Below are positions 3,007 through 47,290 of a DNA stretch of 64,000 nt, one piece after another. Position numbers and translations under genes: made by a program. The DNA comes from Oscillospiraceae bacterium. Lineage in GTDB: Bacteria > Bacillota > Clostridia > Oscillospirales > Ruminococcaceae. Numbering within the stretch: position 1 is the first letter of the stretch; every line of letters begins with the position of its first letter. The notes beneath the pieces were generated by a model, which saw only the letters and a program-made list of their open reading frames with translations, ran no database searches and was not told the origin of the DNA. The DNA lies in NCBI GenBank assembly GCA_018110935.1, contig JAGDBX010000090.1, positions 401 to 64,400 of the forward strand, given 5' to 3'.

Positions 3007-3570
3007 TTACGGGATCAGACCGAATGCGCGGAGCTGACGCACCAGCCGCGAAACCGGCAGACCGACAACATTCGGATAGTCACCCGAAATGCCCGCCACC
3101 AGAAGGCCGCCCTGCCCCTGTATGCCGTAGGCGCCGGCCTTGTCATACGGTTCATCCGTATCGGCATAGGCGCTGATCTCCGCCTCTGTCAGCGGATAGA
3201 ACTGCACGAGTGTTTCATCGGAAAAGCTCGCGGAACGGCCGTCCCAGAATACAGCGACGCCGGTCACGACCTTGTGCTGACGGCCGGAGAGCATCCTGAG
3301 CATTTCACAGCATTCCGCACGGTCACGCGGCTTTCCGAGGATCAGGTCATCCAGAATCACTGTCGTGTCAGCACCGATGACAACCGCGTCGGGGTGCTCC
3401 TCTGCAACAGCGGCAGCCTTGCGCACGGCAAGCAGTTCAGCAGCCTGATCTGCAGGAATCCCGTCCGGCAGCGATTCGTCACAGTCTGAGACGATGACCT
3501 CAAACGGCACACCGAGCCTGCCGAGCAGTTCCTTTCTGCGCGGCGAGGCCGAGGCTAAAATCAGCTTCAT
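3007..3570 (-). CDS. maf: Maf-family nucleoside triphosphate pyrophosphatase (septum formation protein)
   Basis: N-terminus MKLILASASPRRKELL and a length of 187 aa are typical of Maf. Confidence 0.9.
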   Translation of the reverse strand: MKLILASASPRRKELLGRLGVPFEVIVSDCDESLPDGIPADQAAELLAVRKAAAVAEEHPDAVVIGADTTVILDDLILGKPRDRAECCEMLRMLSGRQHKVVTGVAVFWDGRSASFSDETLVQFYPLTEAEISAYADTDEPYDKAGAYGIQGQGGLLVAGISGDYPNVVGLPVSRLVRQLRAFGLIP

Positions 3571-3781
3571 ATCATCTGCTCCTTTATGTTTTCACGGGCG
3601 GGCTTATCCTCGCCTTCCCCCGCTCCTGCGGTATTGTTTGTCAGCAGGATTCCAAACTTTCTTCTGCATCATACGCATGAAAGCGAAAGACAGTTTTTTC
3701 CTGCGAGCGGGCATCCCGCGACCGCTGCGCCGAAGAGTGCGTGCCGCGATCCCCGTTTTTTCTGTCCGCGCGCATCCTTTA

Positions 3782-6257
<2,476 letters not shown>

Positions 6258-7143: not shown

Positions 7144-7548
7144 TTATGTCCAGAGAGATGTCAGATGCATCGGTGAGGACTCATCCGACTTGTGAAATCC
7201 GCAGTTTTTATAGAAATGAAGCTCGTCATTGTACGCGATCAGACAGATGCGGAGATAGTCGGAGTAATGCTCTTTGATTCGCTCCATCAGCGTGCGCCCG
7301 ACTGCGCGGTCCTGATAATCCGGATGCACAAGCAGATAATGAACATAGGCGTTCATCACACCGTCATCCATCGCGCAGACCATTCCGATCAGCTGATCCC
7401 CTGCCCAGGCGGAAATGACCGTCTGAAAGCCTTTCATCGCCTGCACCAGCTTGTCCGGATACGCGCCGGATGACCAGCCGACTGAAAGAAACAGGGATTC
7501 CAGCTGTCCCCGCGTAAAATCATGTGTTTCGCTGTATGTAATTTCCAT
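7144..7548 (-). CDS. GNAT-family N-acetyltransferase
   Basis: Motif VHPDYQDRAVGRTLM is present. Start is set at MEITYSE because AGGAGG lies 7 nt upstream. The longer track start at 7569 contains that RBS. Confidence 0.8.
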   Translation of the reverse strand: MEITYSETHDFTRGQLESLFLSVGWSSGAYPDKLVQAMKGFQTVISAWAGDQLIGMVCAMDDGVMNAYVHYLLVHPDYQDRAVGRTLMERIKEHYSDYLRICLIAYNDELHFYKNCGFHKSDESSPMHLTSLWT

Positions 7549-7598
7549 CGTGCTGCCTCCTGATGACAATGCGCCGGACAGTCCGGCGGTGATATCCT

Positions 7599-7627
7599 AT
7601 TATAGCACACCCGGCAAAGGATTGCAA
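7599..7627 (-). promoter_or_regulatory. SigA-type promoter for the GNAT gene (TTGCAA-17-TGcTATAAT)
   Basis: Reverse complement reads TTGCAA (7627-7622), a 17-nt spacer, then an extended -10 with TATAAT at 7604-7599. Confidence 0.5.
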
Positions 7628-7656
7628 GGGATTTATGCATATCAGACAAACGGAAT

Positions 7657-7772
7657 GTGAGAAATATATCACAGAGCCGGCAAATCGCCGAAAGTGATTT
7701 ATTTATCACAATCCGCTTGACATCTTCAGCGCGATGTGATATAATTATCACACAAAGTGATGAATACATCAC
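7657..7772. promoter_or_regulatory. Array of four 16-bp palindromic operators, GTGAT-N6-ATCAC
   Basis: Box1 is 7657-7672 (GTGAG-aaatat-ATCAC). Box2 is 7694-7709. Box3 is 7736-7751 and overlaps the -10. Box4 is 7757-7772 and lies at or after the TSS. Boxes 2-4 are perfect. Confidence 0.7.
7717..7745 (+). promoter_or_regulatory. SigA-type promoter for the membrane-protein/XRE operon (TTGACA-17-TATAAT)
   Basis: TTGACA at 7717-7722, a 17-nt spacer, and TATAAT at 7740-7745. Confidence 0.65.
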
Positions 7773-7792
7773 ACGAAAAGGAGCGAAGAATT

Positions 7793-8266
7793 ATGAAAAA
7801 ACCCATTCAAAAACTTTCATACCGCAGGCTTTATCTCCGTCATGCTCTCGTCGGCCTGTTCATGGCAGCGATCTGGGGCGGGTACTACGCGCTGAGCAAA
7901 CTGACAGAAGGCTCCCGCATTCTGATTCGTTTTCTGGTGTTTGCACTGATGATTGCAGCGGTATTCGTCACAATGACCGTCTTTATTTTTAATTCTGCAA
8001 GACGCGACCGCGAAGATGAGCTTGCCCGCGAGAACATCGCAAAGACGAACAGCAGGTTTATCTCGTTTATGGCTTTCACCGGGTTTGTACTGTTTATCAT
8101 CTGCACATGCTTTTTCGGAGATTCGCAGAAGATCACGATTGAGATTCATTATGCGTGGATTGCATCGGTGATTTATCTGTTCTTTGCCGTTTACTATTTT
8201 ATTGCGATGTATTTCGAAGCAAAAACAGAGGCACAGTGCGCCGGAGAGGAGCCGGACGATGCCTGA
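7793..8266 (+). CDS. Multi-pass membrane protein of unknown function (DUF2178-like guess), partner of the XRE regulator
   Basis: Start is set at MKKPIQ, with AAGGAG 9 nt upstream. About 4 hydrophobic helices are visible. The stop overlaps the next ATG (ATGCCTGA). Confidence 0.7.
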
Positions 8267-8485: not shown

Positions 8486-8522
8486 AGAAAAAAGCCGATG
8501 CAGAACGCATCGGCTTTTTTTT
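8486..8522. terminator. Bidirectional Rho-independent terminator
   Basis: Stem gccgatgc / gcatcggc with loop agaac, flanked by an A-run on the 5' side and a T8 run on the 3' side. It serves the XRE gene on the plus strand and the tRNA pair on the minus strand. Confidence 0.85.
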
Positions 8523-8606
8523 GGTGGGAGAGGGTGGATTCGAACCACCGAAGCGAGACGCAACAGATTTACAGTCTGCCCCCTTTGGCCACTCGGGAAC
8601 TCTCCC
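8522..8606 (-). tRNA. tRNA-Tyr (anticodon GUA), class II with a long variable arm and encoded CCA
   Basis: Reverse complement is GGGAGAGTTCCCGAGTGGCCAAAGGGGCAGACTGTAAATCTGT...GGTGGTTCGAATCCACCCTCTCCCACCA. Acceptor, anticodon loop CUGUAAA and T-arm all fold. Confidence 0.9.
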
Positions 8607-8615
8607 ATGATTGAA

Positions 8616-8688
8616 AGCTGGTGGACGGACTCGAACCCCCGACCTGCTGATTACAAATCAGCTGCTCTACCAACTGAGCTACACCAGC
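8616..8688 (-). tRNA. tRNA-Thr (anticodon UGU), no encoded CCA
   Basis: Reverse complement is GCTGGTGTAGCTCAGTTGGTAGAGCAGCTGATTTGTAATCAGCAGGTCGGGGGTTCGAGTCCGTCCACCAGCT. The cloverleaf is canonical except for one G-G mismatch and one G-U pair in the T-stem as I fold it. Confidence 0.8.
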
Positions 8689-10541: not shown

Positions 10542-10851
10542 CTATACGGTTTTGACCGGAATTCGCCGGATATGCACATTATAAAGCATAAAACCGTGAT
10601 TTGCAAGAAAAGCGAGACAGTTTTATCGGATTGCACAGCCCGCTTGAAAGAATCCGGATGCTGTTTGTGTGGCCTGCACGACAGATTATTCCGTCGGTAC
10701 CGGAATACGCGTTACGGATGACGCCCGGACAAAGTGCAATATATTTACAATCAAATCAATCCGAACATGAACAGTATGTTACAAAACAATCGCTGATATG
10801 CGGAGGACTTTCTAAAAATCGCACAAAACGAGCCGAATTTTCGGAAAGGGC

Positions 10852-10880
10852 TTAACAATCGCGGAATTATGTGGTATAAT
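10852..10880 (+). promoter_or_regulatory. SigA-type promoter for the PBP gene (TTAACA-17-TGgTATAAT)
   Basis: TTAACA at 10852-10857, a 17-nt spacer, TG at 10872-10873 and TATAAT at 10875-10880. Confidence 0.55.
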
Positions 10881-10971
10881 ATATGTGTATAGATATCCCT
10901 ATTTCCGGTTCTTCCGGTCAACACCCCATGCCGGCAGATGTTCTGCCGTACCCGAAAGGAGCTTCAATTAC

Positions 10972-13383
10972 ATGGATATGACAAACGCAATCAGCAGCAC
11001 CGGCGTATCTGTTCCTGTCAAAAAAGGAAAAAAGCGCCGCAAAACACCGCTGATCCTGCGAATTCTCAAAAAAATCGGCCTGGTGATTCTGGTGACACTG
11101 CTGTCCTTCCTGCTGCTGTTTATCATCATCGGCGTCATCTGCGGCCTGACCGCAACCGCCTATGTCGTCAATTACATGGAGTCTACAAACTCAGTCAGTA
11201 TCCAGGAAATGACAATGAGCTTTTCCACCAACATCTATGAGATGGATGAGAACGGCGAATATGTCAATGTCTACAATGTCAATCAGTCCGTTCAGAGACT
11301 GCCGGTCGATCTGGAAAAGGTACCGCAGCACACGCGCGACGCCTTTGTCTGTGCGGAGGACGAGCGTTTCTATCTGCATGAGGGCATAGATTTCAAGCGT
11401 ACGGCAGGTGCCATCGCGAACATGATCCTCAAATTCTGGAACTCTGAACAGGGCGGTTCCACGATCACGCAGCAGCTCGTCAAGAACCTGACCGGAGACG
11501 ACGAAAAGAGCCCGCAGCGTAAGATCCGTGAGATCTACCGTGCGCTGCAGCTCGAAAAATCCTACTCCAAGGATGAGATCCTCGAAACCTATATCAACTA
11601 TATCGGCTTCGGCGGCGCGGCAAACGGCGTTGAAATGGCCGCGAAAAAATATTTCGGGAAAACCGTCAGTGAGCTTTCCATCGCGGAAAGTGCATGTCTT
11701 GCGGCCATTCCGCAGAACCCGGAGGTCAACAACCCGTTCGCCGGCAGATATGAGGTCCGCGAAAACGAAGTCACAAAGACGGAATATGTCTCTGACAACT
11801 TCATCAACACCGGCGAACAGGCCAACCGTGAGCGTATGGAGTATATCCTTTACAGAATGTACTATAACGGCGCCATCACCTTTGACGAATATCAGGATGC
11901 GCTGCATGAGCACCTGATCTTCAAGGGTACCGACGAATACAAGGCTCTTCACCCCGAAGAGGAGCCCAAGGTCGATGAGAACGGCGCTGCCGTCACAGAG
12001 GAAAAGAACACAACATGGGCCGTCGATGAGGCGCTCCGCGAATACGCGCATGTGCTGATGGAACAGCGCGGCATCACAATGAAGAGAGCGCTCGGCATCA
12101 TCAACAGCGGCGGCTATCAGATCTATACGACAGTTGACCGCAAAATGCAGGCCTATGTCGAAAACAAGTTCCTCGATATGAACAACATCCTGAGCGGCAT
12201 GACGACTGTCTCAAGAACCAATTACCGCCGCGATCTCAACCACGACGGCAAATATGAGGGCGTTGTCAACGGCAAGAAAGAGGTTTTGCCCCTGCAGTGC
12301 GGCTTTACGGCGATCGACTATGACGGCAGAGTGCTCTGCACCGTCGGCATGATCGGCAAGAAGCAGGGCTCCCTCGGCACATCCTTCGCATCCACAGAAA
12401 AGCAGCAGCCCGGTTCCGCGATCAAGCCTGTCACTTCCTACGGCTACGCACTCTATCACGACGCAATCTCCTGGGGCACAAAGCTGCTTGACAATCCGGT
12501 CATCACCAACCCTGAAACGGGAAAGCCGTGGCCTTCCAACTATTCCGAAACCAACATCGGCACATGGTCTCATGCAAAGGTCAATGTATATAAAGCACTG
12601 GAAGTCTCCAAGAACACGATCCCCGCGCTTCTGGTCAAGAATTTCCGTGAGCAGGTCTATGACTTTGCGATGAATTCCGTCGGCCTGAGCCTTGATGCAA
12701 AGGACCGCGACCTTGCTCCGCTTTCCGTCGGTGCTCTGCGCTACGGCGTGACGGTTAAGGATCTCGTCAACGCCTTCATGATCTACGGAAACGGCGGCAT
12801 CTTCTGCGACGCACATATCATCGACCGCGTGGAATCCGGTGACGGCGGCGTGATCTATCAGGGCGGCGAAGGAAAGACACAGGCCGTTGACCGCGAAACC
12901 TCCTATGTTATGAACAAGCTGCTCCAGAATGTTATCAACGGCGAGCAGGGTACCGGTAAACAGGCAAAGCTCTACAAGAACGGCAAACAGATCCCGATTG
13001 CCGGCAAGACCGGTACGACCACGGACTGGTGCGATAAGCTGTTTGTCGGTCTGAATCCGGACTTCGTCAGCGGCTGCTGGTTCGGCTATGAGGAAAACAA
13101 GGAGATCCAGAACCGCGGCGCTTTTGATACACCGCACGCATGGAAAAATATCATCGGCGACTGGATCACAAAGAACTGGTCCGGCAAGGACTTCCCTGAA
13201 TGCAGCACGGTCATTTCCGGCCATGTCTGCGTGGGAACCGGAAAGATCGCCGGTGACGGCTGCACCAAGGGCGCGGTCGGCTACTGGAAATCCACCAATG
13301 CGCCGTACTGTGACAACCGTGAGCTTGGTCTGCAGCAGCCTAAGAATTACGGCGGCTCAAACGGCAGCGACGGAGGAAACTGA
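10972..13383 (+). CDS. Class A penicillin-binding protein (glycosyltransferase plus transpeptidase)
   Basis: GT51 motifs CAEDERFYLHEGID and GGSTITQQLVKN are present, with transpeptidase motifs QPGSAIKP and KTGTT. Start is at MDMTNA, with AAGGAG 9 nt upstream. The track start at 10885 is a GTG inside the promoter. Confidence 0.93.
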   Translation: MDMTNAISSTGVSVPVKKGKKRRKTPLILRILKKIGLVILVTLLSFLLLFIIIGVICGLTATAYVVNYMESTNSVSIQEMTMSFSTNIYEMDENGEYVNVYNVNQSVQRLPVDLEKVPQHTRDAFVCAEDERFYLHEGIDFKRTAGAIANMILKFWNSEQGGSTITQQLVKNLTGDDEKSPQRKIREIYRALQLEKSYSKDEILETYINYIGFGGAANGVEMAAKKYFGKTVSELSIAESACLAAIPQNPEVNNPFAGRYEVRENEVTKTEYVSDNFINTGEQANRERMEYILYRMYYNGAITFDEYQDALHEHLIFKGTDEYKALHPEEEPKVDENGAAVTEEKNTTWAVDEALREYAHVLMEQRGITMKRALGIINSGGYQIYTTVDRKMQAYVENKFLDMNNILSGMTTVSRTNYRRDLNHDGKYEGVVNGKKEVLPLQCGFTAIDYDGRVLCTVGMIGKKQGSLGTSFASTEKQQPGSAIKPVTSYGYALYHDAISWGTKLLDNPVITNPETGKPWPSNYSETNIGTWSHAKVNVYKALEVSKNTIPALLVKNFREQVYDFAMNSVGLSLDAKDRDLAPLSVGALRYGVTVKDLVNAFMIYGNGGIFCDAHIIDRVESGDGGVIYQGGEGKTQAVDRETSYVMNKLLQNVINGEQGTGKQAKLYKNGKQIPIAGKTGTTTDWCDKLFVGLNPDFVSGCWFGYEENKEIQNRGAFDTPHAWKNIIGDWITKNWSGKDFPECSTVISGHVCVGTGKIAGDGCTKGAVGYWKSTNAPYCDNRELGLQQPKNYGGSNGSDGGN

Positions 13384-25024: not shown

Positions 25025-27835
25025 TCAGTCTTCGCGGTATTCCTCGATGATAAACGCCTCAAGAATATCGCCTTCCTTGATATCGGCAAAACGCTCCAGC
25101 GAAATGCCGCATTCATAGCCGGTCGCGACCTCCTTGACATCGTCCTTGAAGCGGCGCAGTGAATCAATCTGATCCTCTGCCACAACGATGCCGTCACGCA
25201 CGACACGGATCTTGCACTGTCTTGTCACCTTGCCGTCCAGCACATAGCAGCCGGCGACCGCGCCGACACTGGAGATATGATACACCTGACGCACCTCGAT
25301 GCGTGCCATCTGCACCTCGCGGAACTTCGGCGCCAGCATGCCCTTCATAGCGGTCGAAATCTCCTCGATCGCATCGTAGATGATGCGGTACAGGCGGATA
25401 TCGACACCGTCTCTCGCGGCGGTCTCACTCGCGACGGGCATCGGACGGACATTGAAGCCGACGATGATCGCGTTGGATGCGTTCGCAAGCATGACATCAC
25501 TCTCGGAAACAGCACCGACCGCACCGTGAATGACACGGACGCGCACTTCTTCATTGGAGAGCTTTTCAAGCGACTGTGTAACCGCTTCCACAGAGCCCTG
25601 CACATCCGCCTTGACGATGACAGCCAGTTCCTTCATCTCGCCCTCTGCAATTTGAGAGAACAGGTTGTCGAGCGTGACTTTGCGGTAAGCCTTGAACTGC
25701 TCTTCCTTCGCTTCATGCTTTCTCTGCTCCACAAGCTCCTTTGCGAGACGCTCATCCTCAACGGCGTTGAAGACATCGCCCGCACTCGGGACCTCGGCGA
25801 GACCGGTGATCTCGACCGGAACAGAGGGACCGGCCTCCTTGACGACCTTACCCTTGTAATTTGTCATGACGCGGACTCTGCCGACCGCGGTTCCGGCAAT
25901 GATGACATCGCCGGTGTGAAGCGTACCGTTCTGCACGAGGATCGTGGCAATCGGGCCTCTGCCCTTGTCCAGACGCGCTTCGATAACGGTACCCTTTGCC
26001 AGACGGTTCGGGTTCGCCTTCAGCTCGCGGACTTCCGCAACAAGCAGAATGTTCTCAAGCAGCTCCTCGATGCCCTCACCGGTCTTTGCAGAGACGGGCA
26101 CACAGATCGTGTCGCCGCCCCATTCCTCGCAGACAAGCTCATATTCCGTGAGCTGCTGCTTGACGCGGTCGGGATTTGCGCCTTCCTTGTCCATCTTGTT
26201 GATCGCAACGATGATCGAAACGCCTGCAGCCTTCGCGTGGTTGATCGATTCGATCGTCTGCGGCATAATGCCGTCATCTGCCGCGACAACGAGGATCGCG
26301 ATATCGGTGATGTTTGCGCCGCGCGCACGCATGGATGTGAACGCTTCATGGCCGGGCGTATCAAGGAAGGTGATGGTCTTGCCTTCATGCGTGACCTGAT
26401 ACGCGCCGATGTGCTGTGTAATGCCGCCGGCCTCGGTATCTGTCACATGCGCATTGCGGATACGGTCGAGGATCGAGGTCTTGCCGTGGTCAACATGTCC
26501 CATGACGACAACGACCGGGCAGCGCTCCTCGAGTGCATCCTCAGGATCGGCTTCATCGGTGATCAGACGCTCTTCGATCGTGACGATGACCTCATGCTCG
26601 ACCTTTGCGCCGAGCTCTTCCGCGACCAGCGACGCGGTGTCAAAATCAATTTCTTCGTTGATATTGGCCATGACACCGAGTCCCATCAGTTTCTTGATGA
26701 CATCGCGGACCTGCACCTTCAGGCGGGTTGCCAGTTCGCTGACGACGATGCTGTCCGGAATCAGAACCTTGAGCTGCTGCTTTCTGGCACGCTCAAGCTC
26801 TAATCTGCGCAGCTTTTCCGCCTCTGTCTCGCGCACCTTGCCGGACTTCTGCTGTCTGGCTCTCTGCTGGGATTTCTGGGTGATCTTCTGCTTCTTTGCA
26901 GCGTTGTTATCGCGCTTGCCGCCTCTGCCCTGCGGGGCAATCTGCTCATAGCGCTCGTTATACTTATCCAGATCGACATAGCTGCCGCGCGTGTCGATCG
27001 TGTGGCGCTGCTGACTCGGCTGAACATCCGTAGATGCCGCAAAATCCATCTCGATCACAGCGCGCTCGCCGCGCTCCTGTGCCTTGGCAGGCTTCTTCGG
27101 AGCCTTGGGCTGACGCGGCTGCGGCGGCTGAGCAGGTGCCTTCTTCGGCTGCTCGGCTGCCGGTTTTGCGGCAGGAGCTGCAGCGGCCTGCGCCGGCTGA
27201 GCAGTCTGTTTGGCAGCAGCGGCAGCCTTGGCCGCCTGCTTCGCAGCCTGCTGCTGTTGATTCTGAGCCTTTCTCGCAGCTTTCTCCGCCTGCTGACGCT
27301 CATACATCGCGGCACGCTCTCTCGCGCGCTGCTCGGTCATCGCCGCCGTAACAACGCGCGGTGCGGCCGGAGACTCTTCAGCTGCAGGTGCTTCCGTGAC
27401 CGGAGCCTCCCGGACGGCAGGTGCGGCCTCTTTCACTTCTTCAGCCGGCTGAGCAGGCTTTTCTGCCTTGGCAGGCTTTTCAGCTGCAGGCTTCTCAGCC
27501 TTTGCGGGAGAAGCGGGCTTTTCCTTCTTCTTCTTTTCCGGCTTCTCGGCGTTTTCTTCCTTCTTCACAGTCGGACGCGCCGTTCTGGTCGGTTTCTTGA
27601 CCGTCTGCTGCGGCTCAGCCTGCTGCACAGAACGGTCAGCGTAATATGCTTTGAAATCCGCAACCGCCCGCGCCTGCGAGATCGACTCGAGCAGATAATT
27701 CATCTCCGTTTCGGTTATCGAAGATGTCGCCTTTCTGGTTTTATCGTCCAGCCGTTTGAGCTGTTCGATCAGCTCCTCTGCCGGCAGATTCAGATCTGCG
27801 GCAAAATCACTCAGCTTGACTTTCATTGTTGGCAT
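25025..27835 (-). CDS. infB: Translation initiation factor IF-2
   Basis: G-domain motifs are [14 protein letters not shown] and NKMD. The N-terminal region is long and Ala/Lys/Pro/Gln-rich. Start is at MPTMKVKL, with AAGGGGG 8 nt upstream. Confidence 0.96.
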
Positions 27836-27898
27836 TGGCAATACCCCCTTCGGTACTTTCGGTTCACCGCAATGCAGAGCACCGCGGATACATTCCAT

Positions 27899-42250: not shown

Positions 42251-42279
42251 AAAGCCCCTGCCTGACGGCAGAGGCTTTC
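42251..42279. terminator. Bidirectional terminator between the CpsB-like gene and the convergent aminotransferase gene
   Basis: Stem aaagcccctgcc / ggcagaggcttt has 1 mismatch and loop tgac. T-rich tails are present on both strands. Confidence 0.7.
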
Positions 42280-42289
42280 GTTTTCTGTT

Positions 42290-43498
42290 TTATTTGCCGT
42301 AAGCTTCCGCGAGCTTTTTGAAAGCAGGCAGGCTGCGCTCGATCATTTCAGTTGTCACACAGTAAGCGATGCGGACAAAGCCCTCACAGCCGAATGAATC
42401 TGACGGCACGATGAGCAGCTCATAATCGCGTGCCTTTTGGCAAAAGGCGTTTGCGTCAGGCTCCAGCGCCTGCACCCAGAGATAGAACGCACCGTCCGGA
42501 TAAATGCAGCGATACCCGTATTCGGTGAGTGCTTTATAGAGCAGGTCACGGTTTCTGCGGTAAACAGACAGATCGCCGGTTCTGCCGAGGTTATCGGCAA
42601 CCACGCGCTGTGCCATGCTCGGCGCGCAGACAAAGCCGAGCGCTCTGCCGGAACCGCAGACAGCGGCATATACGAGCTTGCTGTCTTTCATCTTCGGGGA
42701 AACGACAATATAGCCGATACGCTCACCCGGCAGCGAAAGCGATTTGCTGAACGAATAGCAGACAAAAGTATCATCATAGAGATTCGGCAGATAGGGCACA
42801 ACCGTGTCTGCGTCATAGACCAGCTCACGGTAGGGCTCGTCAGCAATCAGATAGATCGGATGTCCGTACTCCGCCTCTTTGGCGCGCAGAATATCGCAGA
42901 GCTTTCTGAGATTCGCCTCGGTAAAGACCACACCTGTCGGGTTGTTCGGGGTATTGATGATGACCGCCTTTGTCTGCGCATTGACCAGCTTTTCAAATGC
43001 GTCCAGATTGAGCTGGAAGCTGTCAAGATCTGCCGGAACAACGGTCAGATCAGCGTTTGCCGCTTCGACAAAGACGCGGTATTCCGGGAAAAAGGGCGCA
43101 AACGCGATGCAGTTGTCTCCGGGGCAGAGCACCGCATGAAGCGTGACGGTCAGTGAGGCGGCCGCACCGCAGGTCATGTATATATTTCCCGCGGAAATGC
43201 CTGCCGAAAACCGCTTGTTGATATCTGCGGCGATTGCGGAGCGTACCGGCTCCGCACCGACCGCCGATGTGTAGCCGTGCAGCAGAACGGAATCGGTTTC
43301 GTCCATCAGCCGGCGCATCGTGTCATGTACGCTATCCGGCGCGGGAACACTCGGATTGCCGAGGCTGAAATCAAAGACGTTTTCTCTGCCGATCTCAGCG
43401 GCACGGCGGTTGCCGTATTCAAATGTCTCGCGGATCACAGACGGTGCCTGCCCGAGCGCAAGCATCGACGCCTGAAAAGGTTGATAATTCTGAGCCAT
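42290..43498 (-). CDS. Class I/II pyridoxal-phosphate-dependent aminotransferase (AspC/AlaT-like)
   Basis: The PLP-Lys motif SFSKSLSLPGERIGY and INTPNNPTG are present. Start is at MAQNYQ, preceded by AAGAGGAAA. Confidence 0.88.
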   Translation of the reverse strand: MAQNYQPFQASMLALGQAPSVIRETFEYGNRRAAEIGRENVFDFSLGNPSVPAPDSVHDTMRRLMDETDSVLLHGYTSAVGAEPVRSAIAADINKRFSAGISAGNIYMTCGAAASLTVTLHAVLCPGDNCIAFAPFFPEYRVFVEAANADLTVVPADLDSFQLNLDAFEKLVNAQTKAVIINTPNNPTGVVFTEANLRKLCDILRAKEAEYGHPIYLIADEPYRELVYDADTVVPYLPNLYDDTFVCYSFSKSLSLPGERIGYIVVSPKMKDSKLVYAAVCGSGRALGFVCAPSMAQRVVADNLGRTGDLSVYRRNRDLLYKALTEYGYRCIYPDGAFYLWVQALEPDANAFCQKARDYELLIVPSDSFGCEGFVRIAYCVTTEMIERSLPAFKKLAEAYGK

Positions 43499-43551
43499 GG
43501 GAATTTCCTCTTTTCGTATGAAATATGATATGGATATATCGTCAGAAACAG

Positions 43552-44031
43552 TCAACGCCTGAAAAAGCTCCGGAGGCTGACTTTTTTCATCTCCGGCTGT
43601 TCACTGTCCTGCAGAAGACAGTCTGTGACGCAGTCAAGGGTCTTCAGTTCCTTGACCCACTCATCCGAATCCTGCTGATAGCTGATCATGCGCATGGAGC
43701 GGTTCAGCGCAGACTGCACCGTTTCGACGCCGTTCAGGTCGGTTTCATCCAGGAACAGCAGGACCGTCTGCCGCTCCAGCGCGGACGCCGCCCTGAGCTG
43801 ATTGACGCAGTTTTCATCAGCAAGCCACTGCTTTGAAACAAGGATCAGTGCCGTCCGGCACTGGCTGAGACGCTCAAGGTCTTCTCTGCGCTGCGCGTTG
43901 AAGCCCTTGTCAGCAACCCAGACGCGGAGTTTCTCAGACTGCAGCTGCCGGATGATTCTGGAAGCTGCTGTGCGGTTTTTCGCCGCGGAGCAGACTGCGA
44001 TGAAGTCTGCACTGCCCTGATAGGATTCCAT
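43552..44031 (-). CDS. Small stand-alone TIR-like domain protein
   Basis: 159 aa. DFIAVCS is a betaA-like strand, KLRVWVAD is betaB-like, and ALILVSKQWLADENCVNQL matches the TIR_2 S.W...E.. pattern. RBS AGGAGGA lies 7 nt upstream. The call comes from motif reading only. Confidence 0.55.
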   Translation of the reverse strand: MESYQGSADFIAVCSAAKNRTAASRIIRQLQSEKLRVWVADKGFNAQRREDLERLSQCRTALILVSKQWLADENCVNQLRAASALERQTVLLFLDETDLNGVETVQSALNRSMRMISYQQDSDEWVKELKTLDCVTDCLLQDSEQPEMKKVSLRSFFRR

Positions 44032-44067: not shown

Positions 44068-44538
44068 TCAGTCGTTCGAATCTTCCGTAAAATGATCCGG
44101 ACAGCTGACATAGAGATCAATTTTCAGATCGGTACCGGTCTCAAGACAGAAACGCATAACCTGCATAGACGGCGCGAGACTGGGGGACGGTTCATCAAAC
44201 CGAACCATCGGCACAACTTTCAGCGTCATGGAAACACGGTTCATAAGCCGTATTTTCCGGAGCAGATCAGCCTTCGGCACCAGTGCGGCGATCGTCATCT
44301 GCATTTGCTTCGCAGTATCCTTTTCGTATTCGATGCACGAACCGTAACGCCAGATCGCCGTTTCATGCTTTTTGCCGTCACCGCGGCGGTCGCCGATCCG
44401 ACGGATGCGTTCAGGTGCCAGACGCAGCAGTTCGGTGACCTGATCCGGATCAAACACACCGCGGATCTCAAAATATGTCAGACATCCTGTGTGCGGCGTG
44501 TGATAATAGACGCGTTTCGGCTTTCGGTCGTCCTTCAT
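44068..44538 (-). CDS. DUF4279-like protein
   Basis: 156 aa. YFEIRGVFDPDQVTELLRLAP......IW.Y and the C-terminal DLKIDLYV fit my recollection of the DUF4279 profile. The ATG overlaps the stop of the upstream GTPase-NYN gene (ATGA). Confidence 0.5.
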   Translation of the reverse strand: MKDDRKPKRVYYHTPHTGCLTYFEIRGVFDPDQVTELLRLAPERIRRIGDRRGDGKKHETAIWRYGSCIEYEKDTAKQMQMTIAALVPKADLLRKIRLMNRVSMTLKVVPMVRFDEPSPSLAPSMQVMRFCLETGTDLKIDLYVSCPDHFTEDSND

Positions 44539-47102
44539 CTGCTTCCTCCGATCAGAGCGCGGATCTCCGCCTCGGTCTGCCGCATTTCCGCTTCAAATTC
44601 CCTTGCGGAGATGCGGATGGCTCCGCCTTCCAGAATGATGATCTGTTCCAGCCCGTCAGAAGTCGCGACGCGGACACGGTGATCCTTCGCCAGCTGATGT
44701 GTGACGCGCTCGATGTAGGAATCGGCGGTTTCTGCTTCTTTTGTATAAACGACACTGATGTTTTGTTCCCTGATGATCTCTGTCGCGTGCCCTTTGATTT
44801 TGTAGGCGTCAAAGACGAGAATCACCTCGCATTTTCTGAATCCCTGATAATTGGAAAGCAGGTGGATCAGACGGCTGCGTGCAGATTCCAGGCTTTCTGC
44901 TGCAAGCGATTTCAGCGATTCCCACGAAAAAATGATATTATAACCGTCCACAAGCAGATATTCCTTGCCCTTCGGCATCGGCGCAGAGACGGAAACCGAC
45001 GGATCCAGCTCCGTCTTCGGATCACGGCGCATCGCCTTGCGGGTATCGCCGCCGATTTTGCCGTAGGTCCGCTCGTAGATCGCCATCAGCTCATCATCGC
45101 CCGCTGCGGAAAACTGCGGCCGGCGAACCGGTACGGTCTCCTCTTCAAATTCCGTCCGGTGGGTACGAAACGCAGAGGGCAGATGCATATACTGCGGCAC
45201 TTCCGCCCAGTTGACCAGAAAACCGGCACCGTGCGCACAAAACACGGAATCAGCGGAGTTTTCCAGATCACTGTCCGCGTCATAACCGATCTTTTCAATG
45301 ACGGCTTCCGCGTTATGACAGGGACGGTATCCGCCGAACGACAGCGACAGTTCTCCACGGCCTTTCGTATAGCTCAGAATCTCGGCTGCGTAATCATTCA
45401 TTTCCGAAACCGGCGCACTGCCGGTGATGACCGCGTGAATGCCGTCGGAATCCGGCGGCCTGAATTCAGCCGCACGCTGCGGGAGATCGGTCATGGCGAG
45501 TCCGAGTGCCTCTGCGGGAAGCTCCAATGTGAAATCGTAATACGGCTCCAGCAAAACAGACTGCGCGGAACGGAGTCCCTGCCGGACGGCGCGGTAAGTC
45601 GCCTGTCGGAAATCGCCGCCCTCGGTATGCTTGGGATGCGCTTTTCCGCTGACCAGTGTCAGTTTCAGATCCGTGATCGGCGATCCGGTCAGTACGCCGA
45701 GATGCTCTTTTTCCTCCAGATGCGTGAGGATCAGCCGCTGCCAGTTCCGGTCAAGCGCGTCTTCGGAGCAGTGTGTCTCAAACTGCAGACCGCTTCCCGC
45801 AGGCAGCGGTGTCAGGATCAGATGCACCTCCGCGTAATGTCTGAGCGGTTCGTAATGTCCGACTCCTTCCACCGGCTCCGCAATCGTTTCCCGATAAGTC
45901 ACGCTGCCACTGTCAAAGGTGACGGCATAACCGAATCTGTCTTCGATCTGCCTGGTAAGCACTTCAAGCTGCACTTTTCCCATCAGCTGCACATAGAGCG
46001 CACGAAGATGCTCATTCCAGAGCACATGGAGCTGCGGATCCTCGGCTTCCAGCTGCCTGAACTGTGAAAGCGCAGTGACCGGCGAAATGTCAGGCGGGAG
46101 AAGCACCTGATACCGCATGACAGGCGTCAGCTGTGCAGAGGCCGCTTGAGCGGCCGCGCCGATGCCGAGTCCGGCAAAGGCGTCCGAAAGCCCGGTGACC
46201 GCACAGACCGCACCGGTCTCCGCTTCATCCGCGGCAATATATTTCGCACCGGAATAGAACCGGATGCCGGTGATCTTTTCCGTCAGCGTTTCTCCGGCGG
46301 CATTCTGATAGGTCAGTTCAGCACGGTTTCTGAGCGTGCCGCCCAGTACCTTGAGAAAGGTCAGCCGGCTGCCCTTGGCGTCCACGGAGATCTTGAACAC
46401 TCTCGCGCCGAATTCAGGCAGGCGTTCGGTTTCCGCGGCATATTCATCTAAAATCCCGAGCAGAGCGGGAACACCCTTCATATCCCGCGCGGAGCCAAAG
46501 CAGCACGGGAATACTTCACGCTTTCTGACAGCATCGCGGAGCATCTCCGGCGGAATCATTCCGGTGTCAAGATAGGTTTCCATCATCTGCTCGCTGCAGG
46601 CGGCTGCCGCTTCGCACCGAGCGTCTTCATCTGTGTCAAACTGCACACAGCAGGGCGAGAGCTTCGCCTGCAGTTCCTGCATGAGTGCGGTTTCGTTTTT
46701 TTCAGCCAGATCCATTTTGTTGATAAACAGGATCACAGGAATCCGGTAACGGGCCAGAAGCCGCCAGAGCGTTCTGGTATGGCTCTGCACGCCGTCCGTT
46801 CCGCTGATGACGAGCACGGCGCAGTCAAGCACCTGCATGGTGCGTTCGGTTTCTGCGGAGAAATCCACATGGCCGGGCGTATCCAGCAGCGTGACGAGCC
46901 GTTCTCCGAGCGGGAAAGACGCCTGATGAGCAAAGATCGTGATGCCGCGGCTGCGTTCAATGGCGTCCGTGTCAAGCCATGAATCGCCGTGATCGACTCT
47001 GCCGCGTTTCCGGATCTCCCCGGTATGAAAGAGGAGCGCTTCCGCTAAAGTTGTTTTGCCGGAATCGACATGCGCCATGATTCCGACGGTCAGCTGCTTC
47101 AT
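44535..47102 (-). CDS. EF-G/TetM-family translational GTPase fused to a C-terminal YacP/Rae1-type NYN ribonuclease domain
   Basis: Start is at MKQLTVGIMAHVDSGKTT, with GGAGGAGG 8 nt upstream. G motifs are AHVDSGKT, RGITI, DTPGH and NKMD. About 650 aa are colinear with TetM/EF-G. The last roughly 142 aa (44538-44963) read EYLLVDGYNIIFSW..VFDAYK..ETADSYIE..VATSDGLEQ, which is the YacP NYN pattern. Confidence 0.8.
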   Translation of the reverse strand: MKQLTVGIMAHVDSGKTTLAEALLFHTGEIRKRGRVDHGDSWLDTDAIERSRGITIFAHQASFPLGERLVTLLDTPGHVDFSAETERTMQVLDCAVLVISGTDGVQSHTRTLWRLLARYRIPVILFINKMDLAEKNETALMQELQAKLSPCCVQFDTDEDARCEAAAACSEQMMETYLDTGMIPPEMLRDAVRKREVFPCCFGSARDMKGVPALLGILDEYAAETERLPEFGARVFKISVDAKGSRLTFLKVLGGTLRNRAELTYQNAAGETLTEKITGIRFYSGAKYIAADEAETGAVCAVTGLSDAFAGLGIGAAAQAASAQLTPVMRYQVLLPPDISPVTALSQFRQLEAEDPQLHVLWNEHLRALYVQLMGKVQLEVLTRQIEDRFGYAVTFDSGSVTYRETIAEPVEGVGHYEPLRHYAEVHLILTPLPAGSGLQFETHCSEDALDRNWQRLILTHLEEKEHLGVLTGSPITDLKLTLVSGKAHPKHTEGGDFRQATYRAVRQGLRSAQSVLLEPYYDFTLELPAEALGLAMTDLPQRAAEFRPPDSDGIHAVITGSAPVSEMNDYAAEILSYTKGRGELSLSFGGYRPCHNAEAVIEKIGYDADSDLENSADSVFCAHGAGFLVNWAEVPQYMHLPSAFRTHRTEFEEETVPVRRPQFSAAGDDELMAIYERTYGKIGGDTRKAMRRDPKTELDPSVSVSAPMPKGKEYLLVDGYNIIFSWESLKSLAAESLESARSRLIHLLSNYQGFRKCEVILVFDAYKIKGHATEIIREQNISVVYTKEAETADSYIERVTHQLAKDHRVRVATSDGLEQIIILEGGAIRISAREFEAEMRQTEAEIRALIGGSR

Positions 47103-47133
47103 GCGTGTTTCCTCCTCCAGTTCAATTATTATG

Positions 47134-47162
47134 ATTATAGCACATTTTGAAAATAATTTCAA
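47134..47162 (-). promoter_or_regulatory. SigA-type promoter of the GTPase-NYN / DUF4279 / TIR unit (TTGAAA-17-TGcTATAAT)
   Basis: Reverse complement reads TTGAAA (47162-47157), a 17-nt spacer, then TATAAT (47139-47134) preceded by TGc. It sits about 30 nt upstream of the ATG at 47102. Confidence 0.65.
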
Positions 47163-47248
47163 CCCGTGATTTGCGAGAGTGTATCTGCCTGATTCGGTTA
47201 TCCCCATGTTTCTCTGCATTCTCTCCTCCCGAAAGAACGCTTTGACAG

Positions 47249-47290
47249 AAAAAGCGCCCCCGCAGGTTCAATCTTTACCTGCAGGGGCGC
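47249..47290 (-). terminator. Rho-independent terminator of the arg operon (after argF)
   Basis: A 13-bp stem, gcgcccctgcagg / cctgcgggggcgc (1 mismatch), followed by TTTTT on the minus strand. It lies 14 nt after the argF stop. Confidence 0.8.

Follow-up and report, generated by a model that had tools for sequence, protein, structure and literature searches.

What would a ribosome-binding GTPase do with a ribonuclease of its own? This question is raised by a gene on the minus strand of a 64,000-nucleotide stretch of Oscillospiraceae bacterium DNA (GenBank assembly GCA_018110935.1, contig JAGDBX010000090.1, positions 401 to 64,400; the whole stretch is referred to below as the window, and positions are counted from its first nucleotide). 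The product of the gene joins a GTPase resembling elongation factor G (EF-G) and the tetracycline resistance protein TetM to an NYN endoribonuclease of the Rae1/YacP type. An earlier note, made by reading the DNA sequence alone, had described this fusion and suggested that the GTPase could deliver the RNase to the A site or decoding centre in a GTP-controlled manner. The observation is correct, and the inference was reasonable but is by now partly outdated. From sequence comparison we lean, by a small measure, towards the view that the protein is a chromosomal, vertically inherited clostridial translation factor, composed of an EF-G/TetM-like GTPase and an endoribonuclease of the Rae1 type that is permanently attached to it.

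The fusion as such is not new, and the gene is another member of a clostridial family. TetM-like/NYN_YacP fusions of Clostridia were reported by Atkinson 2015 (BMC Genomics, PMC4342817), who placed them in the Tet subfamily, and by Matelska et al. 2017 (Nucleic Acids Research, NAR; PMC5499597); about ten species are listed in these papers, and function was only speculated upon. A full-text literature search returned no further paper on the fusion and no functional study, and the recent Rae1 papers are silent on it. That is, the earlier note was right in being unaware of functional work, although the architecture itself had already been published.

The minus-strand open reading frame (ORF) is open from 47219 to 44535; from the ATG at 47102 it comprises 855 codons plus TGA and is uninterrupted, as the earlier note had stated. 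We take 47102 rather than 47219 as the true start, a choice supported by the upstream signals, because the terminator-like hairpin of argF, a promoter-like site and the Shine-Dalgarno sequence all precede this ATG. The N-terminus thus obtained, MKQLTVGIMAHVDSGKTT, is the usual start of EF-G and Tet proteins. The Pfam profile search was made in an 894-residue numbering; other residue numbers refer to the 855-residue protein. Following the direction of the gene, its signals and parts are:

About 47247 to 47290: terminator-like hairpin closing argF (the ornithine carbamoyltransferase gene); the promoter of the fusion lies downstream of it.
47134 to 47162, minus strand: sigma-70-type promoter-like site, TTGAAA, 17-nucleotide spacer, TATAAT, with an extended -10 TG (11 of 12 hexamer positions match).
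47111 to 47118, minus strand: Shine-Dalgarno sequence GGAGGAGG, 8 nucleotides 5′ of the ATG at 47102, by direct reading of the sequence.
44535 to 47102, minus strand: coding sequence of the fusion, 855 residues, TGA stop at 44535-44537, delimited by translation, Pfam and homologue searches.
46437 to 47093, minus strand: G domain, residues 4-222, with a G′ insertion as short as that of TetM (Pfam GTP_EFTU, E 2.4e-51).
46176 to 46412, minus strand: domain II, residues 231-309 (Pfam EF-G_D2, E 4.5e-6, 27.1 bits against a cutoff of 27).
45915 to 46061, minus strand: domain III, residues 348-396 (Pfam EFG_III, E 3.7e-3, 17.7 bits, below the cutoff of 27).
45561 to 45908, minus strand: domain IV, residues 399-514 (Pfam EFG_IV, E 7e-20), with tip loops VEGVGHYEPLRHYAEVH (residues 411-427) and KHTEGGDFRQAT (residues 491-502).
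45309 to 45557, minus strand: domain V, residues 516-598 (Pfam EFG_C, E 2.4e-18).
45177 to 45308, minus strand: conserved C-terminal extension, residues 599-642, CHN...ENSADSVFCxHGAG..W.EVP.YMHLP; the C-terminal helix of TetM cannot be aligned with it.
44967 to 45176, minus strand: disordered acidic/basic linker, residues 643-712 (AlphaFold pLDDT, the predicted local confidence score, below 50; mean column conservation 0.23).
44559 to 44957, minus strand: NYN_YacP (Rae1-type) endoribonuclease domain, residues 716-848 (Pfam PF05991, E 4.3e-48, 163.9 bits against a cutoff of 24.6).

The gene is real and intact, a conclusion that is confirmed by its relatives. In a collection of 5.8 billion proteins, all 120 top matches (92-59% identity) carry the GTPase and PF05991 in a single ORF, the closest being a 92%-identical protein of 855 residues; their lengths are 844-888 residues, with one exception of 810 residues that is annotated as partial. 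In an exhaustive search of cluster representatives at the 50% identity level, the best 150 (54-40% identity, 830-960 residues) share the architecture and align nearly all from end to end, the few shorter entries being truncated or chimeric. Furthermore, when each GTDB species was represented by one genome, the scan gave at least 586 relatives, and the best 80 of them all span the extension, the linker and the NYN domain, with the GTPase part upstream. At the DNA level, one uninterrupted ORF with both P-loop and NYN domain was found in 79 of the 85 loci fetched, among them those of the isolates Ruminococcus sp. YRD2003, Intestinimonas butyriciproducens An565, Gemmiger formicilis DFI.6.10 and Flavonifractor hominis. 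Of the six exceptions, five are truncated where the contig ends; at the sixth, locus L032, an ORF of just 232 codons lies within the contig, perhaps owing to a frameshift. The exact protein is missing from the contig index, so that there is no independent replicate of the identical sequence. The nearest relatives belong to Oscillospiraceae, Ruminococcus and other Clostridia, and the one-polypeptide fusion described in the earlier note is widespread in gut Clostridia. The family also far exceeds the earlier listings: its clusters at the 50% identity level number over 150, and its species are in the hundreds.

Two side observations concern its margins. Some representatives, such as P0150 (1156 residues) and P0154 (1069 residues), exceed the others by 200-300 residues, and in them the match begins at about residue 200-450, which suggests extra N-terminal domains or gene-call fusions. 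Moreover, two unannotated human-faecal contigs labelled 'Bacteriophage sp.', MT835563.1 (7191-8015) and MT835514.1 (16998-17759), encode the extension, linker and NYN domain at 44-48% identity; these could be mislabelled bacterial contigs or a prophage-adjacent host gene.

The GTPase module has the hallmarks of the EF-G/Tet (EF2) group of translational GTPases. The motifs G1 (AHVDSGKT), switch I (RGITI), G3 (DTPGH, with the catalytic His78 of switch II in the DxxGH motif) and G4 (NKMD), all of them recognized in the earlier note, were found, and the Pfam matches follow one another in the order GTP_EFTU, EF-G_D2, EFG_III (weak), EFG_IV, EFG_C and NYN_YacP, that is, the five-domain order G-II-III-IV-V followed by the nuclease. 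GTP_EFTU, EFG_IV, EFG_C and NYN_YacP, four of the profiles that the note had named, are significant, and EFG_III remains below its cutoff; domain III is nevertheless present as a fold in the AlphaFold model, despite the weak sequence match. The full-length model has a pLDDT of 76.9, and its top PDB matches are full-length EF-G structures (E 1e-52, over the first ~690 alignment columns). The collinearity with TetM that the note had pointed out is borne out by a single BLASTP high-scoring pair at 28% identity (residues 1-592 against TetM 1-610, with the TetM sequence verified against PDB 3j9y_w). In a phmmer search of the PDB, Staphylococcus aureus EF-G scored 236 bits and TetM 225 bits, and in these terms the GTPase module lies at roughly equal distance from EF-G and TetM.

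The NYN_YacP match covers profile positions 1-135 of 166. The earlier note had made its case depend on a significant match of this kind near the C-terminus, and the E value given above leaves no ambiguity in this respect. In sequence the domain matches Bacillus subtilis YacP/Rae1 in the PDB (5mq8/5mq9, E 1e-23), and in a Foldseek search the two Rae1 structures were the sole significant PDB matches of the NYN region (E 3e-11, TM score 0.68-0.73, 40-41% identity). When the last 269 residues were modelled with AlphaFold, the NYN domain obtained pLDDT values mostly above 90, with short dips. The acidic residues that the note had singled out are in place, in that D719, D765, D794 and D816 of the fusion align with D7, D53, D81 and D104 of Rae1. 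We take D7 and D81 to be catalytic-mutant positions of Rae1, in keeping with this alignment. The final ~30 positions of the YacP profile (~136-166) have no counterpart in the fusion, which ends 23 residues after the last conserved motif; a tail of at least 40 residues, with an NYLF...IRLGK-like motif, is retained in 52 of the 150 representatives. On the sequences compared, this tail loss is specific to the present clade. The idea that the Rae1 tail was lost since the GTPase takes over ribosome binding was rejected family-wide, because one third of the representatives retain the tail.

Between domain V and the nuclease lie two segments of quite different character. The first is the conserved extension of about 50 residues, which may also be delimited as residues 593-642, and in which C595, C622, H624, W632 and H640 are kept in 112-138 of the 150 representatives. 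The Cys/His set C595, H596, C622, H624 and H640 (window ~45183-45320, minus strand) was noticed as a candidate metal site. A zinc site formed by C595, C622, H624 and H640 was set aside, the Cys pair showing no clear co-variation (Fisher p = 0.09) and the AlphaFold confidence being 50-70. The second is the linker, placed in the earlier note at 44960-45180 with a length of ~70 residues (~642-715); this coincides exactly with the low-confidence segment of the AlphaFold model, residues ~641-712 being predicted to be disordered. Its length varies from 60 to 127 residues across the family, and within it lies a conserved short helix, DDELMAIYERTYGK (residues 668-682, window 45057-45101, minus strand), with the conserved pattern D-ELMxIFERTYGK at residues 669-682.

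All conservation counts refer to the 150 representatives, which are mutually no more than ~50% identical. The P-loop Asp, Lys and Thr, the switch I Thr and the DxxGH motif are kept in 148-150 of them, the Asn of NKxD in 139, and the four catalytic Asp residues of the NYN domain in 145-148. Both catalytic centres are thus under strong purifying selection: the GTPase module should be a functional ribosome-binding translational GTPase and the NYN domain should be a functional nuclease. Since the GTPase residues and the NYN Asp residues are kept together, selection maintains the two activities on a single polypeptide, in agreement with a ribosomal nuclease that is targeted by a GTPase. Mean column conservation is highest in domain IV (0.68), followed by the G domain (0.64), the NYN domain and the C-terminal extension (0.58 each) and, far below, the linker. 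Only three stretches of at least 12 residues exceed 0.83, namely the P-loop, VEGVGH(Y/F)EPLRHYAEVH and KHTEGGDFRQAT, and the latter two are the tip loops of domain IV. This tip is family-specific, basic and rich in His, Lys and Arg, and it differs from the corresponding loops of EF-G and TetM. In EF-G and TetM, domain IV enters the A site and reaches the decoding centre. With domain IV being the most conserved domain, a read-out of the A site or decoding centre is plausible, and the constraint on its tip argues that such recognition would be central to function. A new result of the present work is that conservation within the family is greatest at the tip of domain IV.

Taken together, these features make it probable that the protein is a GTP-gated, ribosome-targeted RNase. 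The GTP form of the GTPase module would bind the ribosomal factor site, as in the EF-G and Tet paralogues, and the conserved tip of domain IV would probe the A site or decoding centre. The flexible tether of 60-130 residues would confine the NYN domain near the bound ribosome, where RNA would be cut, and GTP hydrolysis would release the factor, such that cleavage would be limited to ribosomes passing the domain IV check. A more specific form of this model, which we put forward tentatively and would not press, is that the RNA in question is mRNA on stalled or collided ribosomes. By analogy with B. subtilis Rae1, such cleavage would provide truncated mRNA for tmRNA rescue. A speculative but coherent geometry would have the EF-G-like body on the trailing, translocation-blocked ribosome of a disome. 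As for the GTP-controlled delivery to the A site envisaged in the earlier note, its general part, a ribosome-targeted GTPase-nuclease, fits the conservation pattern, whereas cleavage in the A site goes back to the 2017 docking model of Rae1, which was revised by the Rae1 authors in 2025. According to a 2026 preprint (CART), Rae1 makes tmRNA substrates from collided ribosomes.

Several points weigh against this reading. Ribosome binding, GTPase activity, nuclease activity and substrate are all things that we infer rather than observe. The tether would reach the mRNA entry, the mRNA exit, rRNA, tRNA or a neighbouring ribosome, and the substrate is accordingly not constrained by it; nor, because the tether of 60-127 residues is disordered, can modelled geometry place the NYN domain, so that the superposition on ribosome structures proposed in the earlier note would not discriminate between sites. 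The loops of domain IV are unlike those of EF-G, which serve translocation, and unlike those of TetM, and they do not point to a particular ribosomal state. Loss of the YacP tail is of no use as a family-wide argument, about one third of the family retaining it. Finally, according to the 2026 preprint, no structure of Rae1 bound to the ribosome exists, because the binding is transient. A more ambitious version of the model would have the protein act as a self-contained factor for the quality control of ribosomes and as the first translational GTPase to carry a nuclease of its own, in which the domain IV tip senses a translocation-blocked or A-site-vacant ribosome, GTP binding and hydrolysis license a single cut at the collision interface, the fusion replaces free Rae1 in Oscillospirales, Lachnospirales and Monoglobales, and the neighbouring DUF4279 protein acts as a clade-specific brake; this we hold to be unlikely. 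In relation to such a replacement, no stand-alone second NYN gene was found within the window or in any of the 85 fetched loci.

The rival that survives best concerns the substrate. The fusion might cut a stable RNA, namely the A-site tRNA or else 16S or 23S rRNA in the vicinity of the factor site or the decoding centre. It might thereby serve to mature ribosomes, to control their quality or to decommission those that are damaged or idle, and the GTPase module would verify that the subunit interface is in a functional state. NYN_YacP was originally tied by gene neighbourhood to rRNA and tRNA processing through the mrnC-yacO-yacP operon (PMC5499597), the extreme conservation at the tip of domain IV implies that it touches a ribosomal feature that does not vary, and the tether would let the NYN domain reach rRNA. 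The gene for the tRNA methyltransferase TrmO is moreover the commonest gene immediately 3′ of the fusion (~10 of 80 loci: L019 at 10822-11496, L073 at 7304-7984, and also L024, L030, L036, L050, L051, L054, L060 and L069), with a start that sometimes overlaps the fusion stop. The TrmO linkage is seen in a minority of loci, however, and this adjacency amounts to a weak thematic link to translation. On the other side stands the NYN domain itself, with its 40-41% identity to Rae1 and the same catalytic set, and we regard the stable-RNA alternative as decidedly unlikely next to cleavage of mRNA.

A second alternative arises from the gene neighbourhood. The window is otherwise an ordinary piece of chromosome, with ligA and genes for a class A penicillin-binding protein, infB, phosphoenolpyruvate carboxykinase and an arginine-biosynthesis cluster. 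The last of these lies upstream of the fusion and ends with a carbamoyltransferase gene; downstream, on the same strand, follow:

44068 to 44538, minus strand: DUF4279 gene, 156 residues (Pfam DUF4279, E 2.3e-16); its ATG overlaps the TGA of the fusion (ATGA), with a GGAGGA Shine-Dalgarno sequence just upstream.
43552 to 44031, minus strand: gene for a TIR_2-domain protein, 159 residues (Pfam TIR_2, E 1.2e-8), in the same apparent operon.
42290 to 43555, minus strand: aminotransferase gene, downstream of the TIR_2 gene.
42251 to 42278, minus strand: strong terminator-like hairpin of 12 pairs, 3′ of the aminotransferase gene, where the transcription unit probably ends.

Elsewhere in the window, infB (initiation factor IF-2, 957 residues, 25025-27898, minus strand) contains the only other match to a translational GTPase (tblastn, 26150-26512), and adjacent tRNA-Tyr and tRNA-Thr genes are located at 8522-8688 (minus strand).

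The coupling to DUF4279 is not confined to this window. A DUF4279 gene lies directly 3′ of the fusion homologues at 86, 74, 72 and 70% identity, either overlapping or no more than 15 nucleotides apart, and all other flanks differ. The positions are 10568-11035 in L081, 8573-9058 in L082, 8579-9034 in L085 and 5596-6072 in L086, which makes five contexts counting the window. Next to the fusion homologues with 67% and 64% identity it is missing, as it is from all of the 80 loci that are more distant still, in none of which the arginine, TIR or DUF4279 genes of the window had a tblastn match. The TIR_2 gene is common only to the window and the 86%-identity relative (L081, 11081-11560). That the present clade has a translationally coupled, immunity-like DUF4279 partner is, to the extent described here, a new observation; DUF4279 goes under the name FdL-Imm5 as one of the families predicted to confer immunity in polymorphic toxin systems, and in other settings its partner is an Rhs-Ntox33 RNase toxin. 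In this clade the protein may restrain the nuclease, and it would be either a lineage-specific nuclease regulator or one half of an inherited gene pair, not a property of the family.

It could be argued further from this pairing, which holds at 70-100% identity when the window is included, that the fusion is a lineage-specific toxin of a conflict or defence module, that is, a ribosome-directed RNase that DUF4279 keeps under control and that acts together with the TIR protein, abortive infection being one conceivable setting. Besides the overlap of the DUF4279 start with the fusion stop and the known pairing of this immunity family with an RNase toxin, the presence of the TIR_2 gene next in line in two genomes would favour such a role, as would the TerB_N/TerB_C and BrxC/BrxD-like genes that precede the fusion at close range in the 86%-identity relative. 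A defence-system identity of the DUF4279 and TIR proteins was considered and gained no support from the searches made: neither they nor the fusion had a meaningful PADLOC match, and DUF4279 has no PDB sequence match. The restricted distribution of DUF4279 means that a toxin role cannot explain the family, Pfam detects no secretion or trafficking domain in the fusion, and the family is housekeeping-like and located outside variable islands. We give this alternative very little credence.

The family does not have a neighbourhood of its own. All-against-all clustering of neighbours in the 74 loci with complete genes disclosed no conserved neighbourhood, the top families occurring in 7-9 loci. Searches of plasmids and phages likewise gave no evidence that the fusion is mobile. 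In PLSDB, 60 records match the query, mostly through stand-alone NYN genes (44 non-mobilizable and 16 mobilizable), and the full C-terminal region occurs only in two large non-mobilizable records with housekeeping genes, from Monoglobus and Agathobacter, which are probably chromosomal pieces. The loci concerned are L091 at 3132-5933 (Agathobacter rectalis, NZ_CP143948.1) and L092 at 3225-5813 (Monoglobus pectinilyticus, NZ_OY725736.1), in records carrying map, ssb and cotJ. In RefSeq, one of these two members is named a TetM/TetW/TetO/TetS resistance protein and the other a 'translation factor GTPase family protein'.

These names lead to a third alternative, suggested by Atkinson 2015 (PMC4342817), namely that the fusion is a tetracycline ribosomal protection protein with an added RNase domain, conferring nuclease-assisted resistance. 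The case for it consists of the Tet subfamily placement in that study, the collinearity with TetM and the TetM-sized G′ insertion, the TetM/TetW/TetO/TetS family label that PGAP gives to homologues, and the fact that the best NCBIfam model is tet_protect (NF012153), which is matched from end to end. This match scores 387.8 bits, though, where the curated cutoff is 775, and the specific Tet models are all far below theirs (NF033148, 260.8 against 1100; Tet(M), 214.8 against 1420). The EF-G models TIGR00484 and NF009381 also stay far below cutoff (273.8 against 659.4 and 331.8 against 583, respectively), such that the protein does not score as elongation factor G proper either. With domains IV-V alone, EF-G scores 77 bits and TetM/TetO 60-61 bits.

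Loop III of TetM domain IV (residues 506-513) is the element that displaces tetracycline. Its sequence, YYSPVSTP, is aligned in the fusion to AHPKHTEG, the family-invariant form being AHxKHTEGGDFRQ. The TetM C-terminal helix has no counterpart in the fusion, the BLASTP alignment ending at TetM residue 610. On NCBIfam cutoff, loop III and C-terminal helix alike, then, the fusion fails, in sequence terms, to qualify as a ribosomal protection protein. The chromosomal housekeeping setting of the window, the non-mobilizable nature of the two PLSDB records and the variable neighbours point in the same direction, as does the divergence of the family to ~40% identity while its architecture stays stable, a pattern typical of vertically inherited housekeeping genes. 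Resistance is, if anything, a slightly poorer explanation than the toxin, and we consider it highly improbable. The remaining explanation, an artefact in which mis-assembly, a missed stop or a frameshift has joined two genes, has practically no standing, given the 92%-identical protein of the same length, the same ORF in hundreds of independent assemblies including isolates, and the conserved motifs in the junction region.

The reading of the protein as a ribosome-targeted nuclease has practical consequences. Automatic annotation commonly labels its members 'TetM/TetW/TetO/TetS family tetracycline resistance ribosomal protection protein', a name that is probably wrong judging from the comparisons above; as the fusion fails to qualify as such a protein, resistome surveys that use such names may overcount tet genes. 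The fusion family is also abundant in dominant gut commensals, such as Faecalibacterium, Gemmiger, Ruminococcus, Agathobacter, Intestinimonas and Flavonifractor. A natural Rae1 joined to an EF-G-like GTPase could give structural access to the way in which Rae1 engages the ribosome. If the proposed function is true, the fusion would be the first EF-G paralogue with intrinsic catalysis beyond GTP hydrolysis.

Compared with known systems, the present gene does not differ in architecture from the clostridial TetM-like/NYN_YacP fusions already described, and it comes from the same taxon. With B. subtilis Rae1/YacP (5MQ8, 5MQ9) it shares an NYN domain at 40-41% identity and the same four catalytic Asp residues, and by analogy both presumably act on translating ribosomes. 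Rae1 is a free protein of 170 residues that binds the ribosome transiently, whereas the NYN domain of the fusion forms the C-terminus of an 855-residue GTPase and, in the present clade, is devoid of the last ~30 profile positions. TetM and TetO (3J9Y, 3J25, 4V6V) have in common with the fusion the five-domain EF-G-like GTPase, with a short G′ insertion and 28% collinear identity. The fusion differs from them in scoring below every Tet cutoff, in not conserving the loop III motif and the C-terminal helix, in being non-mobile, and in possessing the extra extension, linker and nuclease. EF-G (S. aureus, 2XEX; Thermus thermophilus) is the best PDB sequence and fold match to residues 1-600, and the fusion resembles it in the catalytic His, the domain order and an equivalent of the domain IV His; in contrast to EF-G, loop I of its domain IV is 4 residues shorter and devoid of a GGRGQ-type sequence, and its G′ insertion is smaller.

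With Escherichia coli SmrB and yeast Cue2, collision-dependent mRNA endonucleases that feed rescue pathways, the analogy is a functional one only, as their fold is unrelated (SMR versus NYN). Adaptors of the GTPase family of the Ski7/Hbs1 type couple ribosomes to RNA decay and are likewise analogous in function only. In none of SmrB, Cue2 and Ski7/Hbs1 is the nuclease covalently joined to a full EF-G-type GTPase, as it is in the fusion.

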